Source of the DNA: a virus
Taxonomy: Duplodnaviria > Heunggongvirae > Uroviricota > Caudoviricetes
Length of the DNA stretch: 64,000 nt
Reading direction: 5' to 3' (one strand)
Virus record (IMG/VR): IMGVR_UViG_3300013132_000019
In this document: piece by piece, positions 45,681 through 63,898 of the stretch
How positions within the stretch are numbered: position 1 is the stretch's first letter
Layout: every line of letters begins with the position of its first letter
Made by a program: the position numbers and the translations under genes
Notes under the pieces: model-generated
Seen by the model: only the letters and a program-made list of their open reading frames with translations
Databases searched by the model: none
Told to the model about the DNA's origin: nothing

Positions 45681-45810
45681 ACTTCTTTTAATTAAATATG
45701 GTTAAGTTTTAAAAAGTTTATTTTTTTGTAAATAAAACAGATTCAGTTTCTTTTATCCAAATATAAAGTTTAAAATTTGCTGAAGTGAATCTTCAAATCA
45801 TTTACAGAAC

Positions 45811-48284: not shown

Positions 48285-48387
48285 GTAGTCAGGACAGGAT
48301 TCGAACCTATATGAAGTATCATCTAATGACCTTATTCTTTTACCCACAATGTAGGGTATTATGCGTCTACCAATTCCGCCACCTGAC
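48285..48387 (-). tRNA. tRNA-Leu-like gene (Leu-type D-arm GGTGGCGGAATTGGTAGACGC), 103 nt, with about 18 nt more than a normal class II tRNA; anticodon unresolved; possible small intron or insert
   Basis: Perfect acceptor AGTCAGG/CCTGACT and T-arm ATAGG-TTCGAAT-CCTGT. The candidate anticodon hairpin TACCC-TACATTGT-GGGTA has an 8-nt loop. A separate ATGA-TACT-TCAT hairpin sits where a variable arm would be. Confidence 0.4.
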
Positions 48388-48589
48388 TATATTCGGGACG
48401 GGAGTAAGCCGCTCCCGTTTGTCCCTACTTCTTTACTGTCGTTTGAGTTTTGAGTTTAGGTCTGAAAACTCCTTCGGTAAGGAAAAGGACCACAGTTTTC
48501 TGGAAAACTTACCTAAACCCCTTTATACAACATTTGTTTCATCTCGTTAAACAATAGTCTCATAGGACGAGGACTAAAAAACGGCTTGT

Positions 48590-57888: not shown

Positions 57889-58083
57889 AGTTTTTTCTAT
57901 TATTAATTAAATAGTTGTTAATTTACAAAAAGTTATTCTTTATATTAAAAATGTAAATGAAACAGATTCTGATAACTTCAGGTTATCACTCTTTGATTTG
58001 GTCAGTGTGACTGGCACACCCCAAATCTCTCCTTTCATAAATAAAAATTTGTTGCTGTAACGAATCTTTATTCATTTACAGTA

Positions 58084-58091: not shown

Positions 58092-58165
58092 TAACATGTT
58101 TTCTAATAATGCAAGTCTTTTTGAAAAAAAATTCACTTTTAATCAGCTGTAATTATAATTGATAT

Positions 58166-58480
58166 ATGGGAACAGTATATCTTTTAGGTGAGTTTGTGGA
58201 TAATCCGAGATACAAAATTGGAATAACAAAAAACAATGTTAATTCCCGTTTGAAGGAATTGCAAACAGGTAATCCAAATGAAATAATCCTAATTAACCAA
58301 TACGAATCTGAGAATTATAGAAAGATTGAGGGGATGCTACATAGAAAATTCTTTATGAATCGAGCTAAAGGTGAATGGTTTGATTTAACCAATGAACAAG
58401 TTTTTTCGTTTCTTGATGAAGCAAAAAAAGCTGATGAACTCATCAGCTTTTTAAAGGAGAACAATTGTTTCTACGACTAA
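58166..58480 (+). CDS. T5orf172 (GIY-YIG-like, MUG113) domain protein (104 aa)
   Basis: VYLLGEF...YKIGITKNNVNSRLKELQTGNP signature. Plus strand. Confidence 0.55.
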   Translation: MGTVYLLGEFVDNPRYKIGITKNNVNSRLKELQTGNPNEIILINQYESENYRKIEGMLHRKFFMNRAKGEWFDLTNEQVFSFLDEAKKADELISFLKENNCFYD

Positions 58481-59490
58481 TCTTTGTTAACCACGCAAGT
58501 TCCGTTATAATAATAGTCAAACTCTTCTAACATATTATCAGTACCAAACTTTATTGTGATTTCTGTGAAATCGCCAAATTGGTCATTAATATAGTCTTTA
58601 AAACCACCAATTGCCTGACCCAATTCTTTACCTTCAAGACCAAATTTATCGATGATGTGCTTACCGTTGAATAATACGGATGCATATTTGCTTTTTGACA
58701 CCTCATATTCAATTCTAGCGATTTCATCAAAGATTTTTGCGTCTGGAAAGAAATAATCGATTCTTCTATATAGTTCAATATCAGAAAGATTATGTTCGTA
58801 CTTATGGTTATCATCAGCAACATTCTTATCAATCCAATCTAAAAACGCCATATAGGATACTCTTTTAAGGTTTCTTTCGCGATTAATTCGATTAAGTTCA
58901 TCCAACTGGAATTTGGTCCAATTGAAATATGGTGATTCAGAAATGAATTGAAATATCTCATCCAAAGTTTCAAAACCTTTTAACCATCTGTTAAAATCCA
59001 ACCCTAAGAACTCATAAATCTTTTCTTGGTCTTTGCTGACCATTATCTTATGTTTGGTGTCCTTATAGTAATATGTTATCCAAAAACCTTCAGCACCATA
59101 TCTACCACCCATATGATGAGCCAATCTTCCCAGATAATTGCCGAGGTCGTTGAATGAAAGGTAGCTTAAGTATGAATCAAAATGGTCTTCAGAAGTGGTT
59201 ATAAGGTCAATCTGAAATTCTTTATAATCAAATGACCAACAGTTACCATTGTGATATATCTCATTTGGTTTAAACTGTTCGGTTATCAATTCTCTTATAT
59301 TACCAGAATAACCTTTCATTGAAACCAAAATATCCATATCACCAAAACTTTCTTTTGTATGATAATATCTTGGTATTTCGGCTTTGTAAAAAAACCTTCG
59401 GATTTTCCTAAGAACCTCAGAAGTGAGTTTGATATACTCTTCCTTTTGGTAACGTCTTGTATACGCTGTCTTTATTGCTCTGCCACCCAT
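58477..59490 (-). CDS. polymerase-beta-type nucleotidyltransferase-domain protein (337 aa)
   Basis: KESFGDMDILV fits hG[GS]...DhD. The C-terminal region is uncharacterised. Confidence 0.45.
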   Translation of the reverse strand: MGGRAIKTAYTRRYQKEEYIKLTSEVLRKIRRFFYKAEIPRYYHTKESFGDMDILVSMKGYSGNIRELITEQFKPNEIYHNGNCWSFDYKEFQIDLITTSEDHFDSYLSYLSFNDLGNYLGRLAHHMGGRYGAEGFWITYYYKDTKHKIMVSKDQEKIYEFLGLDFNRWLKGFETLDEIFQFISESPYFNWTKFQLDELNRINRERNLKRVSYMAFLDWIDKNVADDNHKYEHNLSDIELYRRIDYFFPDAKIFDEIARIEYEVSKSKYASVLFNGKHIIDKFGLEGKELGQAIGGFKDYINDQFGDFTEITIKFGTDNMLEEFDYYYNGTCVVNKD

Positions 59491-59492
59491 TT

Positions 59493-59804
59493 TTAAAAAT
59501 TGAATTGGTTATCGGTTGCAAATTTAATCAAAAATTTTCTAAGATTCAAAACCGCTTCATTAAAATCTACCCTATCGGTTTCTTTGAATCTTATAGCTTC
59601 TTCGTCCTCTTGAATTGTTTTGTTAATGCTGTGATATATATCACGAACGACTTCAGCTAATTTGTTTTCCATAGTGCTAACGTCAGATTGTCTTAGTTCA
59701 ACAACCTCATCTTCAAGTTCTTTGCAATAATCAACCAATTCTTGAACCTCTGGTTCATCCAATAAGGCGGTATTATATCGGAATATTTGATTAATGGATT
59801 TCAA
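59493..59804 (-). CDS. hypothetical acidic protein (103 aa)
   Basis: ORF. Confidence 0.45.
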   Translation of the reverse strand: MKSINQIFRYNTALLDEPEVQELVDYCKELEDEVVELRQSDVSTMENKLAEVVRDIYHSINKTIQEDEEAIRFKETDRVDFNEAVLNLRKFLIKFATDNQFNF

Positions 59805-59811
59805 ATTAATC

Positions 59812-59979
59812 TAATTCAATATTAAACAATGTTTGACTATAGAAGTCTAACATTAAACCAACGGACATAACCATTTCAAACTCTTTTTGGTTTTTGTCAG
59901 CACCTTCTTTGTTAATCATCTCTAAAGTAGAGATGATGTAATCAGCCGTGAATTGTAATATAGATTTTAACATATTATA
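59812..59979 (-). CDS. hypothetical small protein (55 aa, below the track cutoff)
   Basis: Translated by hand: MLKSILQFTADYIISTLEMINKEGADKNQKEFEMVMSVGLMLDFYSQTLFNIELD. Confidence 0.25.
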
Positions 59980-59991
59980 TTTCTTTAAATG

Positions 59992-60642
59992 CGGTGAGGG
60001 CAGGATTCGAACGCTGCGACCACGAAGTTAACATAACTATTAAAGATTAGTACAATCATTATTTTGTAATTTTAAAAACTTGTATTTATACCAATTTTGT
60101 TCGGTTGCTGTTTTAATTCTATGACAATTAGCACATCGACATTCACACTTATCAATTTCTTTTAATATATTTTCCCAAGAATAACCATCATGAACCATTT
60201 TACTTAACCCATGTATTTTACCATCAGTATCTACGTGGTCAAATTCTAAAACCAGTGGATTCGTGTTTCCACAATCAATACAAGAGGACTCACATAAGAT
60301 GTTATAAAATTTCTCCCGATGTTCGTTTACTCTCTTGTCTCTAGCCAAATTAACCTGCTCTATTATTTTAGTTTTGTTTTTTTCATAATGTTTTTTTGAG
60401 CGAACTTTACCACATTCTCGACACTCACTTTGTAAACCATCTTTTCTACCAGCATTTTTATTAAAATCCGTTAATTTTTTTTCTTCTTTACATACAGTAC
60501 ATTTCTTTTTCATATTTATCCTTTTATAATAAATATGTTAAGAATTAGTAAAGTGCTTAAGAGGCTAATATTAAATTTGCTGAATGTAATCTTTTCAATC
60601 AGATTAACCAAATTACGTGCTCTACCACTGAGCTACCTCACC
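59992..60642 (-). tRNA. split tRNA gene: 5' exon about 60605-60642 (GGTGAGGTAGCTCAGTGGTAGAGCAC...), 3' exon about 59992-60040 (...GCAGCGTTCGAATCCTGCCCTCACCG), interrupted by ~560 nt containing an HNH endonuclease ORF; a candidate tRNA intron
   Basis: The 5' acceptor GGTGAGG and 3' acceptor CCTCACC are exactly complementary. The D-arm is GCTC-AGTGGTA-GAGC. A TTCGAAT T-loop is present in the 3' piece. A TATATTTG promoter box lies at 60660-60667, immediately upstream. Confidence 0.45.
60040..60513 (-). CDS. HNH homing-endonuclease-like protein encoded inside the split tRNA (157 aa)
   Basis: CTVC...CREC zinc knuckle, then SSCIDCGNTNPLVLEFDHVDTDGKIHG...NCHRIK (HNH motif). The stop lies at the 3' exon boundary. 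Confidence 0.6.
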   Translation of the reverse strand: MKKKCTVCKEEKKLTDFNKNAGRKDGLQSECRECGKVRSKKHYEKNKTKIIEQVNLARDKRVNEHREKFYNILCESSCIDCGNTNPLVLEFDHVDTDGKIHGLSKMVHDGYSWENILKEIDKCECRCANCHRIKTATEQNWYKYKFLKLQNNDCTNL

Positions 60643-60682
60643 TTTTAATTATTACAATACAAATATATAAATTATCTTTTAA

Positions 60683-61420
60683 CTATGCAAGTTTTTTATC
60701 TTTTAAAAATGACCTTAAAAACGCATTTTGTTGTCCACCAACTTTTTCAATCCATTTTTCATAATTTTCTCTTTCCATCTTCTCCCATTCCATATAAGTT
60801 GCCTCGTTTGGTTTATGGTTTTCTTTCCATGTGAATGGTGTTGGCTGAAAATCCTCATATGTATTTCTATCAAATACCCTTTCGTCCGTTATGAAACAAA
60901 ACGCTGTCATTGAATCGTTCAAATCAGGTTCATTAAATTCTTGAACAAAGATACCATTATCCAATAACTCATTATAATATTTCTGCATCGTACCAGAATC
61001 AATATAACAATCATTTGTTGTTCCACCATTCAATACTATGCTGGTTTTCCATTTATCAGCCCAACGTTCATATTGTGGTCTTAAATCTTCTGGTACATGC
61101 CGTTCATATTCTGTAACAGCATGTTGAAATTGAATACCCTTTTGGATGCCGCTTAGTTGGTATATAACGAAGCCATACATTCTAAGTTCCAGAAATTCTT
61201 CCATTTTTCTAGCCCTAGAATTTCGTTTAACCTTACAACGTTTAATTCGCTCATCAAACTCTTTACGTGTATATGGCCTAACATGATAATCATATATGTT
61301 TGTTAATTCATCATCAGATGAATCAAACCAATCATCGATGTTTAGGATTCTAATATTATCTTCCAAGCACCAATCGTAAGCTGTTTTAGCTGTCCATGTA
61401 CTACCACTGGCGTGTATCAT
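60683..61420 (-). CDS. hypothetical protein (245 aa)
   Basis: ORF. Confidence 0.5.
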   Translation of the reverse strand: MIHASGSTWTAKTAYDWCLEDNIRILNIDDWFDSSDDELTNIYDYHVRPYTRKEFDERIKRCKVKRNSRARKMEEFLELRMYGFVIYQLSGIQKGIQFQHAVTEYERHVPEDLRPQYERWADKWKTSIVLNGGTTNDCYIDSGTMQKYYNELLDNGIFVQEFNEPDLNDSMTAFCFITDERVFDRNTYEDFQPTPFTWKENHKPNEATYMEWEKMERENYEKWIEKVGGQQNAFLRSFLKDKKLA

Positions 61421-62743: not shown

Positions 62744-63898
62744 CTATGTTAGTAGGGCATATAGTTTTTTGTTATCCATTTGACGTAGATAATCTGGTAT
62801 GGTTTTAACTTTACCATCGTTTAATCCGAAGAATAAACCAGTGAAAGATTTTAAATCATTTGAATCTGCTATATCAAAAACCTTATTAGCAAATAATTTT
62901 CTTTCTTCTTTGGTTATATCTTTTGGTCTAAATTGGTTTAAAGCTTCCCATGATGAGTATAACTTATCAGTTAATTCATTATAATTTTGATGTAATGACC
63001 TAACCTCGTCTTCTCTTTCACGGAATGTCGCAACATATTCTTCAATCTCATTAGTTTTTATGACTTCCATGATATGGTGGGCTTCTGTCCCATTTTTTAA
63101 ATGGTGTACAGCGACATATGCTGGATTTTTAACCTTAACTCTGTTAAAATTACCATCAACAACAACATAACCTTCATTATCATAGGGCATCTGTTCGAAT
63201 GTCTTTATAAGATAATCAAAATTACCTTTATTAAGTTCATGTTCTTCAACATATGGAACACCTAACCAATCAGCTATTTGAATCACATCATTCTTTGAGT
63301 ATTCATCTAACGTTTTTAAATCCCTAACAGTTAACAACGTAACACTAGAAGTTGCATGTGGTGTTACTACTATGTTATACGGTGTTGTTAACTCAAACAC
63401 ATAGGTATTATCGACATCTAACGCTTCAGTGAAATTATCATAATCTGTAAAGTTATAAATGGTTTCCCAAAACAAATCGTTGAATGATGTGTTAAGTCTA
63501 TTATTAACCTCACCTTCACCTTCAGCGGTACCAGTAGTGGCAGCAAACCAACGATTTTTATGCCAATCATAATATAAGTTAATGCAGGTACCATCCAACT
63601 TAGTTTGGATTCTGGCCGTTGACCAATCTATTGTAGCGGCATGACCTTCAGCTGAATTATAAAACTTGGTTAGACCAAGACACATGACCTTCCATGTATC
63701 TTTTTCTAATACAATACCTCTACACTCTTCAACCTCTCTATTACCAAATGGAGATTCAATCTGGTCATATTTAATACATATTTTTTTATCATACACACGA
63801 ATCTTAAGTTTGAAGTCGTTTAACGCTTTACTTAATCCGTGTTCTTTTATGTATTTAACTATAGCTAATTCCATTGTATCTTTTAATTTAGGATACAA
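62744..63898 (-). CDS. RNA ligase, Rnl1-like (ATP-dependent nucleotidyltransferase motif I KLDGT); the track start is TTG at 63898, and the ATG at 63874 (MELAIV) is more likely
   Basis: TKLDGTCINLYY resembles Rnl1/ligase motif I KxDG. Length 376-384 aa, similar to T4 Rnl1. A TATATTTG box lies at 63896-63903. Confidence 0.5.
   Translation of the reverse strand: MYPKLKDTMELAIVKYIKEHGLSKALNDFKLKIRVYDKKICIKYDQIESPFGNREVEECRGIVLEKDTWKVMCLGLTKFYNSAEGHAATIDWSTARIQTKLDGTCINLYYDWHKNRWFAATTGTAEGEGEVNNRLNTSFNDLFWETIYNFTDYDNFTEALDVDNTYVFELTTPYNIVVTPHATSSVTLLTVRDLKTLDEYSKNDVIQIADWLGVPYVEEHELNKGNFDYLIKTFEQMPYDNEGYVVVDGNFNRVKVKNPAYVAVHHLKNGTEAHHIMEVIKTNEIEEYVATFREREDEVRSLHQNYNELTDKLYSSWEALNQFRPKDITKEERKLFANKVFDIADSNDLKSFTGLFFGLNDGKVKTIPDYLRQMDNKKLYALLT

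Follow-up and report, generated by a model that had tools for sequence, protein, structure and literature searches.

A phage tRNA gene split within its anticodon stem: probable intronless homing by an HNH endonuclease gene, and a conserved leader-like insert

The 64,000-nucleotide (nt) stretch of DNA analysed here (hereafter the window; IMG/VR record IMGVR_UViG_3300013132_000019) belongs to an uncultured marine giant phage, and carries near its end a transfer RNA (tRNA) gene that is split. By mapping relatives that lack an HNH endonuclease gene onto the window, we could resolve this gene into three pieces separated by two inserts, one of 49 nt and one of 529 nt, the latter encoding the HNH endonuclease in an open reading frame (ORF) of 157 amino acids (aa). 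The comparison of these relatives indicates that a free-standing HNH gene probably invaded the tRNA gene by intronless homing, and that the cassette it forms is probably no self-splicing intron. The features of the locus are as follows.

60659..60691, minus strand: promoter motif CTTGCAT-N15-TATATATTTGT, 16 nt upstream of the tRNA 5' end
60642-60616, minus strand: tRNA piece 1, nt 1-28 (acceptor GGTGAGG, U8 A9, D arm GCTC-AGTGGTA-GAGC, A26, C27 G28)
60615-60567, minus strand: 49-nt insert between tRNA nt 28 and 29, in the 5' strand of the anticodon stem (TAATTTGGTTAATCTGATTGAAAAGATTACATTCAGCAAATTTAATATT)
60566-60555, minus strand: tRNA piece 2, nt 29-40, AGCCTCTTAAGC (hairpin AGC-CTCTTAA-GC, anticodon CUU (Lys))
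60554-60026, minus strand: HNH cassette of 529 nt between tRNA nt 40 and 41, with boundaries taken from the HNH-less alleles
60513-60040, minus strand: HNH homing-endonuclease ORF, 157 aa from ATG to stop, matching phrog_2255
60025-59992, minus strand: tRNA piece 3, nt 41-73 (TCG TGGTC GCAG(C)G TTCGAAT CCTGC CCTCACC G)

The acceptor strands of pieces 1 and 3 are complementary at seven of seven positions, and C27 G28, piece 2 and U41 C42 G43 together form a perfect anticodon stem of five base pairs (bp; CGAGC/GCUCG) closing the loop C32 U33 C34 U35 U36 A37 A38. After U41 C42 G43, piece 3 continues with the variable loop TGGTC, a T arm (GCAG(C)G-TTCGAAT-CCTGC) with one bulged C, and a discriminator G; CCA is not encoded at the 3' end. 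Once the inserts are taken out, the junctions read GAGCACG/AGCCTCTTAAGC for the 49-nt insert and TTAAGC/TCGTGGTC for the cassette, and the gene with both inserts deleted in silico is called by ARAGORN, at default settings, as a canonical tRNA-Lys(ctt). The original prediction had described two tRNA halves on either side of a single interruption of about 560 nt; the interruption is in fact double, and the third piece, the anticodon hairpin at 60566-60555, had been missed. The 5' half placed at 60642-60605 holds tRNA sequence as far as 60616, positions 60615-60605 being already part of the insert. Likewise, the 3' half placed at 60040-59992 does contain the T-loop and the fully complementary acceptor strand, at 60025-59992, whereas 60040-60026 consists of the stop codon and the cassette tail. 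Nor is the T stem a perfect one, with its extra C (GCAGCG).

The first 26 nt of the gene are identical to the start of a real tRNA-Phe on an unrelated phage contig found in a scan of IMG/VR, which shows that the 5' piece is tRNA-derived and no chance match. The same scan returned no match for the 3' half, none for the core of the 49-nt insert, and only this unrelated tRNA-Phe for the 5' half. The arm GAGCA-CGAGC-CTNTTAA-GCTCG is also found in uninterrupted bacterial tRNA-Lys genes. The intact locus of the window is neither called by ARAGORN at default settings nor matched by the Rfam tRNA model (RF00005). When ARAGORN was relaxed to allow introns, it reported at this locus a tRNA-Pro(tgg) with a 569-nt intron; the call is an artefact in which the drawn anticodon arm uses cassette sequence, and it was rejected because about ten other spurious intron-containing calls appear in the window at the same setting.

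Related contigs are designated here by L numbers. In the empty-site contig L007 (JGI), the flanking 245-aa protein is 86% identical to that of the window and the HNH gene is absent. Its tRNA gene reads GACGAGG TA GCTC AGTTGGTTA GAGC A CG (49 nt) AGC CTCTTAA GCTCG TGAC GTAGG TTCGAAT CCTAC CCTCGTC T; with the 49 nt deleted it is a model tRNA-Lys(CUU) that ARAGORN recognizes at its default settings, and with them it still scores 49.5 bits on the Rfam tRNA model, for which the gathering score is 29. About 2,250 single deletions were scanned, and a stringent threshold was passed only when 48-50 nt were taken out at nt 28/29 (+/- 2 nt). Twelve more HNH-less contigs were retrieved from the cluster of the 245-aa protein, and a metagenome pattern scan added two duplicates; HNH-less alleles as a whole reach 36.5-51.5 bits on the tRNA model despite their 49-nt insert. 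The gene appears to belong among phage tRNA genes of the Lys(CUU)/Asn(GUU) type. It is confined to a close clade, since no tRNA is present at the orthologous positions of relatives at 50% identity (L002, L008, L010), and neither the region nor the HNH-less gene has a related locus detectable by megablast or blastn in 50,697 phage records.

An identical HNH protein is encoded on at least 8 contigs (carriers of the cassette being the window, L003, L004/L006 and L005), and the cassette is absent at the same nucleotide from at least 12 related contigs. Indeed, in L007, L013/14 and L016-L024 the absence is exact, ...TTAAGC being joined directly to TCG.... Presence and absence of the cassette are therefore polymorphic at one exact site (40/41), as expected from homing. 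Seven allele types (A-G) of the split tRNA gene could be distinguished, and are listed here by the two strands of their acceptor stem.

Allele A (window, HNH present): parental, GGTGAGG/CCTCACC
Alleles C and D: parental, GACGAGG/CCTCGTC
Allele F: parental, GAGGAGG/CCTCCTC
Allele B (L003/L005, HNH present): recombinant, GAGGAGG/CCTCACC
Allele E: recombinant, GGTGAGG/CCTCCTC
Allele G: recombinant, GAGGAGG/CCTCGTC

The parental alleles differ by compensatory changes at pairs 2-71 (G-C or A-U) and 3-70 (U-A, C-G or G-C) and at the T-stem pair 50-64 (C-G or U-A). These pairs are broken only in B, E and G, each of which joins the 5' strand of one haplotype to the 3' strand of another and thereby carries one or two mismatches. 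The extra C of the T arm is shared by A, B and the HNH-less allele D, the last of which also has A33. Thus, the stems of this gene are kept by compensatory change, as in a tRNA, whereas no coherent identity set emerges: CUU or GUU serves as anticodon, GUU sometimes alongside A33, and G, U or A stands at the discriminator position, without consistent pairing of the two.

Comparison of the haplotypes places the exchange inside the gene itself. Upstream, window and L003 share 81-86% identity; shortly before the anticodon hairpin the figure rises to 97-100%, and it stays there across the cassette and for about a further 2.4 kb. The change from one level to the other occurs no more than about 25 nt away from the insertion site. 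Window and L016 show the reverse arrangement (96-100% upstream, 75-88% downstream), and between L016 and L023 identity jumps from about 82% to 100% within the gene. Every crossover is located between D loop and anticodon hairpin, in or next to the 49-nt insert. The same HNH cassette is therefore found in two upstream backgrounds, with a 5' conversion tract shorter than about 25 nt and a long 3' tract, which is the pattern of co-conversion. The gene is a recombination breakpoint between haplotypes about 20% apart, and haplotype switches inside it account for the chimeric alleles with mismatched acceptor strands.

The ORF of the cassette matches PHROG family phrog_2255 (‘HNH endonuclease’) at E = 8e-32, which bears out the endonuclease ORF that had been predicted between the tRNA halves. 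Homologues are present in 240 phage records, mostly annotated as HNH endonucleases and some of them beside tRNA genes; those at 70-85% identity again lie in or beside tRNA genes (L025, L026/27). Alignment with ten homologues shows C31, C34, C78, C81, D92, H93, C123, C127, N129, C130 and H131 to be invariant, and these comprise the zinc cysteines (Cys4), a DH and a CxNCH motif: the ORF is intact with its catalytic residues kept, as expected of a homing endonuclease. Pfam gave no match for the protein at E <= 0.01 and no family for its neighbours, and a sequence search of the PDB gave none either. The non-coding part of the cassette is limited to a 41-nt leader with an AAGGA ribosome-binding site on the 5' side of the ORF and a 14-nt tail on its 3' side. 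Sequence homologous to this leader (CTTAACATATTTATTATAAAAGGA) precedes small ORFs at 45705 and 54379 of the window, and the cassette leader is of the ordinary kind that this phage places before its genes.

Presence/absence polymorphism together with co-conversion is the signature of intronless homing by a free-standing endonuclease gene, a process known from phages (PMC3984707), where SegB of T4 acts within a tRNA cluster (PMC2330249) and nuclease genes mark the boundaries of exchange (PMC10448857). Accordingly worded for this locus, the HNH nuclease would cut HNH-less alleles in or near the gene during co-infection, and repair would copy the cassette and its flanks from the HNH-carrying genome, thereby spreading the cassette; the break itself would be made by the HNH protein. 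Cutting and repair would turn the tRNA gene into a boundary of genetic exchange and yield the mismatched chimeric acceptors. HNH-less variants have the anticodon loop CTCTTAA, CTGTTAA or CAGTTAA and the variable loop TGAC or GTGTC, and this variation around nt 33-48 may reflect escape from cleavage. As for the window genome, it would produce no contiguous canonical tRNA by known bacterial pathways; the 12-nt middle piece also makes a tRNA in fragments implausible, so that decoding has probably been lost and the gene of the window is probably not a working decoder.

The closest counterparts are free-standing genes of the T4 SegB type, which share with this locus a selfish nuclease among tRNA genes, present in some genomes and absent from others, with co-inherited flanks and a boundary of exchange (PMC2330249, PMC2988022, PMC10448857). 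SegB is, however, a GIY-YIG enzyme encoded between tRNA genes, whereas here the gene of a predicted HNH nuclease lies inside one and splits its anticodon stem. The nrdA gene of Aeromonas phage Aeh1, split by mobE, likewise shows a free-standing endonuclease gene within a conserved gene without intron or intein (PMC3045599). In that case the fragments reassemble into an active enzyme, an outcome that the 12-nt middle piece makes unlikely here.

The 49-nt insert occurs in every one of the seven allele types, whether or not HNH is there. Parental haplotypes agree in it at 92-94% of positions, against about 75-88% in their flanks, and over all 21 allele pairs its mean identity is 95.6%, against 74.6% for the 3' exon part (variable loop, T arm and acceptor 3' strand). 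In this exon part the window allele is identical to either HNH-less parental at 19/31 positions, while those two agree at 27/29; the format of anticodon stem and 7-nt loop shows 94% identity across alleles. No Rfam family matches the insert, no second copy occurs in the window at <= 3 mismatches, and no relative was found in the 50,697 phage records. A homologue (nhmmer, E = 3.6e-10) does exist in another tRNA-like gene, that of L025, with the acceptor CGAGAGG/CCTCTCG. RNAalifold draws a 12-bp hairpin from G28 and insert nt 1-30, followed by an A/U-rich tail, with two variable positions compatible with it. The HNH-less gene, submitted to RNAfold and RNAalifold, folds no better than shuffled sequences (z = -0.9) and shows no covariation within the insert, and by inspection no hairpin is conserved among the copies of the leader motif.

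What the insert does resemble is a leader sequence. Leaders similar to its core, GATTNAAAGATTACATTCAGCAAATTT, come after the 45841 and 58115 promoters and after a promoter of variant form (TTTGCAC...TGTATATTTGT) that precedes 51871; on the minus strand the leader core lies at 58068, 51871 and 45793, and the window has 4 occurrences of it. All alleles of the tRNA gene retain the promoter motif CTTGCAT-N15-17-TATATATTTGT, which has seven minus-strand sites in the window (60691, 58115, 54409, 45841, 35298, 29830 and 13540); because it recurs at these seven places, it is probably a real phage promoter motif. The consensus promoter that had been predicted upstream of the gene is a weak one in sigma-70 terms (3/6 + 5/6, with sigma-70-like sites at chance level in the window), and it is as part of this recurrent motif that it stands. 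At several promoter sites the leader AAGATTCNNTWCAGCAA is followed by sequence of the CCATATTTAATTAA type before small ORFs preceding tRNA clusters, and these promoter and leader units look like paralogous regulatory cassettes. The insert thus seems to be a copy of a leader or regulatory motif of the phage and not a ribozyme, and we propose that it derives from, or acts as, a promoter-proximal leader motif; its presence in every allele does not depend on HNH. T4-type promoter early stem-loop (PeSL) cassettes offer a possible parallel, being also short repeated promoter-plus-leader motifs that lie in a variable region and at recombination junctions (PMC2839356, PMC4122927); here there are 7 copies of the promoter motif and 4 of the leader core, and crossovers fall in or next to the insert. 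The sequences are unrelated to T4 PeSLs, though, a promoter-less part is what stands inside the tRNA gene, and a role in recombination is at most suggested by the positions of the breakpoints.

In tRNA genes, interruption by an endonuclease ORF is classically associated with group I introns, and this was the reading first proposed for the locus, with the ribozyme core overlapping the HNH ORF. Bacterial tRNA genes do harbour group I introns close to the anticodon, for instance in cyanobacterial tRNA-Leu and tRNA-fMet and in Patescibacteria tRNA-Asn and tRNA-Asp, and a few of them carry homing endonuclease genes (PMC3984707, PMC13011429). Those introns sit in the anticodon loop (PMC13011429), have a ribozyme core (P3-P9, with the guanosine-binding site in P7) of about 200 nt or more, and follow the rule of a U before the 5' splice site (the U.G pair of P1) and a terminal G (PMC3984707). 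None of this is found here. Both inserts lie in the anticodon stem, the cassette at 40/41; its boundaries, fixed unambiguously by the HNH-less alleles, place it after C40 and end it in U (...TTAACT), and the 49-nt insert follows G28 and ends in ...ATATT. A scan of 59700-60900 with Rfam 15 at E <= 10 detected no Intron_gpI, no group II intron and no small self-cleaving ribozyme, and no intron or ribozyme model reached the Rfam gathering thresholds anywhere in the window. The doubt already voiced in the original prediction, that too little non-coding RNA remains for a ribozyme, proved justified, with only 41 + 14 nt outside the ORF. Nor does a core overlap the ORF: between the ORF of the window and its 85%-identical L025 homologue, synonymous differences occur at 28 codons spread along the gene, 11 of them lying between codons 101 and 148, and at their 3' ends the cassettes show no relation to each other. 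The homology of the cassette leader to ordinary phage gene leaders also speaks against an intron. A group II intron would have 5' GUGYG, 3' AY, six domains and a reverse-transcriptase ORF; the inserts here begin with ACUUU and UAAUU, and the ORF has no reverse-transcriptase domain. So far as sequence can tell, the group I reading is refuted, its remaining probability being extremely small; the alternative that had been mentioned in brackets beside it, an endonuclease-disrupted tRNA, is the one backed by the comparative data, namely the HNH-less alleles and the exchange at the locus.

Protein-dependent splicing would need no ribozyme, and several observations could be aligned with it. Both inserts would then be intervening sequences of a new kind, an endoribonuclease of phage or host recognizing the leader-like motif and an RNA ligase joining the exons into a functional tRNA-Lys or tRNA-Asn, with a T4 Rnl1-type ligase plus a kinase and a phosphoesterase as candidates. 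Indeed, exact removal of the inserts gives canonical tRNAs, the insert is conserved above the exons, acceptor and T stems covary among haplotypes about 20% apart, the anticodon stem is perfect in all alleles, a second tRNA-like gene (L025) has a homologous insert, and an Rnl1-family ligase gene lies 2.1 kb upstream, near Metallophos, HAD and AAA_33 genes. However, ligase and kinase gene sets (T4 Pnkp, Rnl1) are the standard phage answer to host anticodon nucleases, and a link between the insert and this ligase was rejected, as the ligase gene is missing from the neighbourhood in upstream haplotype U2, where the insert is the same. Moreover, no bulge-helix-bulge motif, in which a 4-bp helix separates two 3-nt bulges with the splice sites, could be drawn at the junctions by inspection: the sole 4-bp helix near both of them (GGUU/AGCC) has a 6-nt bulge on one side and none on the other, and it is broken in alleles E and F. 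Anticodon and discriminator vary without a coherent identity set, and the three chimeric alleles with acceptor mismatches persist in several samples. To our knowledge, protein-dependent tRNA splicing has no precedent in bacteria or phages. It is thus quite unlikely that the insert at 28/29, possibly with the cassette, represents a new class of phage tRNA intervening sequences, removed by proteins or excised without ligation as in fragmented ribosomal RNAs, and the splicing of both inserts into a working tRNA deserves the same reserve. Archaeal non-canonical tRNA introns and split or permuted tRNA genes do have intervening sequences in the anticodon stem, as here (PMC4090602), but here the host is bacterial by all context, and neither a bulge-helix-bulge nor a splicing endonuclease was found. 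The gene might otherwise not decode at all, and open the p55-p103-p337 transcript as a tRNA-like element for processing or scaffolding. Only the acceptor stem, D arm and T arm would then count, by directing cleavage by RNase P and RNase Z, and the anticodon arm could accommodate the leader motif as well as, in some genomes, the HNH messenger RNA. In keeping with this, only the acceptor and T stems covary; anticodon loop, variable loop and discriminator vary freely, and D, the allele sampled most often, has lost U33. The anticodon stem accepts insertions of 49 and 529 nt, and the gene comes first after the promoter, directly upstream of ORFs. Such an element would, however, have no need of the conserved stem and 7-nt loop of the anticodon arm, and recombinants with two acceptor mismatches would weaken the supposed functional feature. 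As an account of the locus this remains unlikely. For the HNH-less alleles we nevertheless rank it slightly above enzymatic splicing into a working tRNA, because the features read by RNase P and RNase Z are kept and the identity set is incoherent; an acceptor stem, D arm and T arm kept by selection would suffice for recognition by both enzymes. A decaying pseudogene in every genome, finally, would have inherited its acceptor match and would keep in the 49-nt insert the scar of an earlier cassette. The T-stem bulge in A, B and D, the A33 of D, the acceptor mismatches in B, E and G and the rearranged, truncated copies in L025 are all compatible with decay. Yet three haplotypes about 20% apart retain 7/7 pairing through double changes at 2-71 and 3-70, together with a compensated 50-64; alleles C and F are canonical save for the insert (about 50 bits on the Rfam tRNA model); and the insert is 92-94% identical where the flanks are at about 80%, which makes general decay improbable.

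Intronless homing remains the explanation we favour, and several points weigh against it. In the HNH-carrying allele of the window, the acceptor stem is still perfectly paired over 7 bp in its own type, and the anticodon hairpin is intact. Such retained stems are unexpected for a long-dead gene, and the HNH insertion may be recent; splicing by another route may also occur. The breakpoints, for their part, could come from ordinary homologous recombination at a conserved island, without any nuclease. Lastly, homing accounts for the locus only in part, leaving aside the conserved 49-nt insert.

Other genes of the window and of related contigs are of interest beside this locus. The T4 Rnl1-family RNA ligase (PF09511, 46.7 bits) is encoded at 62744-63874 on the minus strand, beside Metallophos, HAD_SAK_1 and AAA_33 genes; the ligase gene and a 224-aa ORF belong to one upstream haplotype only (window, L004/L006 and L016, versus L003 and L017). 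On the plus strand at about 58160-58475, between the p337 gene and the 58115 promoter, related loci hold an opposite-strand T5orf172/MUG113 ORF with a GIY-YIG-like nuclease fold, immediately downstream of the p337 gene, which may be another selfish nuclease bordering the same block. In L002, a relative at 50-60% identity, the homologue of the 337-aa nucleotidyltransferase-like protein (window 58477-59490) is fragmented among three GIY-YIG ORFs (L002:970-6561), and an HNH ORF in reverse orientation directly follows the homologue of the 245-aa protein; the region attracts homing endonucleases.

Further tRNA-like genes with unusual arms were also detected. At 48286-48388 on the minus strand, the window has a 103-nt tRNA-like gene (37.4 bits on the Rfam tRNA model) with a type-II D arm, good acceptor and T arms, and about 33 nt in place of the 15-nt anticodon arm. 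For ARAGORN to call it, introns must be allowed (Leu aag; 21-nt insert with a CCC...GGG hairpin and an A-rich tail), and it may be a second insert-bearing tRNA of the same phage; deletion scans of window 48285-48389 and of L025:2177-2299 yielded no clean tRNA. In L025 (200-1000 and 1477-1548) the 85%-identical HNH gene comes after AGCCTGTTAAGC, with no tRNA 5' half upstream. The 3' half (...CCAGC CTTGTCC T) stands 3 nt ahead of a 5' half complementary to it (GGGCAAG TAGCTCAATTGGTTAGAGCACG), which comes with a leader-like insert. This order resembles that of permuted tRNA genes (PMC4090602), and is probably what remains of a tandem pair; the same locus also has a tRNA with anticodon UUA, of the ochre-suppressor type. 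In L026/L027:1960-3130, the 70%-identical HNH homologue ends a tRNA cluster with three tRNA-Lys(UUU) genes, after which an apparent interrupted tRNA shows a D arm and a CTGCAAT loop, about 110 nt, and GTAGGTTCGAATCCTAC. L002:7662-7963 holds tRNA-Cys and tRNA-Val genes of 85-86 nt with long variable arms, and a 122-nt tRNA-like gene (34.5 bits) in which a G+C-rich hairpin follows the D arm.

Free-standing endonuclease genes in phage tRNA clusters and endonuclease-bearing group I introns in bacterial tRNA genes are already known. In a limited literature search we found no description of an HNH gene placed directly in an anticodon stem without an intron, nor, in that search and in the 50,697 phage records, of a tRNA gene with a leader-like insert in every allele and covarying stems. 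For annotation, the locus shows that a tRNA gene split in this manner is missed by standard tRNA finders. Should the 49-nt insert be excised from the transcript, it would rank as the first tRNA intron of a non-ribozyme kind known from a bacterial system; should it stay in the RNA, the gene would be a tRNA-like element with another role. If homing has indeed taken place as suggested here, the locus would provide a clean natural example of a homing endonuclease gene that has entered a tRNA gene unprotected by any intron. In this way a conserved RNA gene of small size would become a crossover point between phage haplotypes about 20% apart, which could help in understanding mosaicism in giant marine phages.

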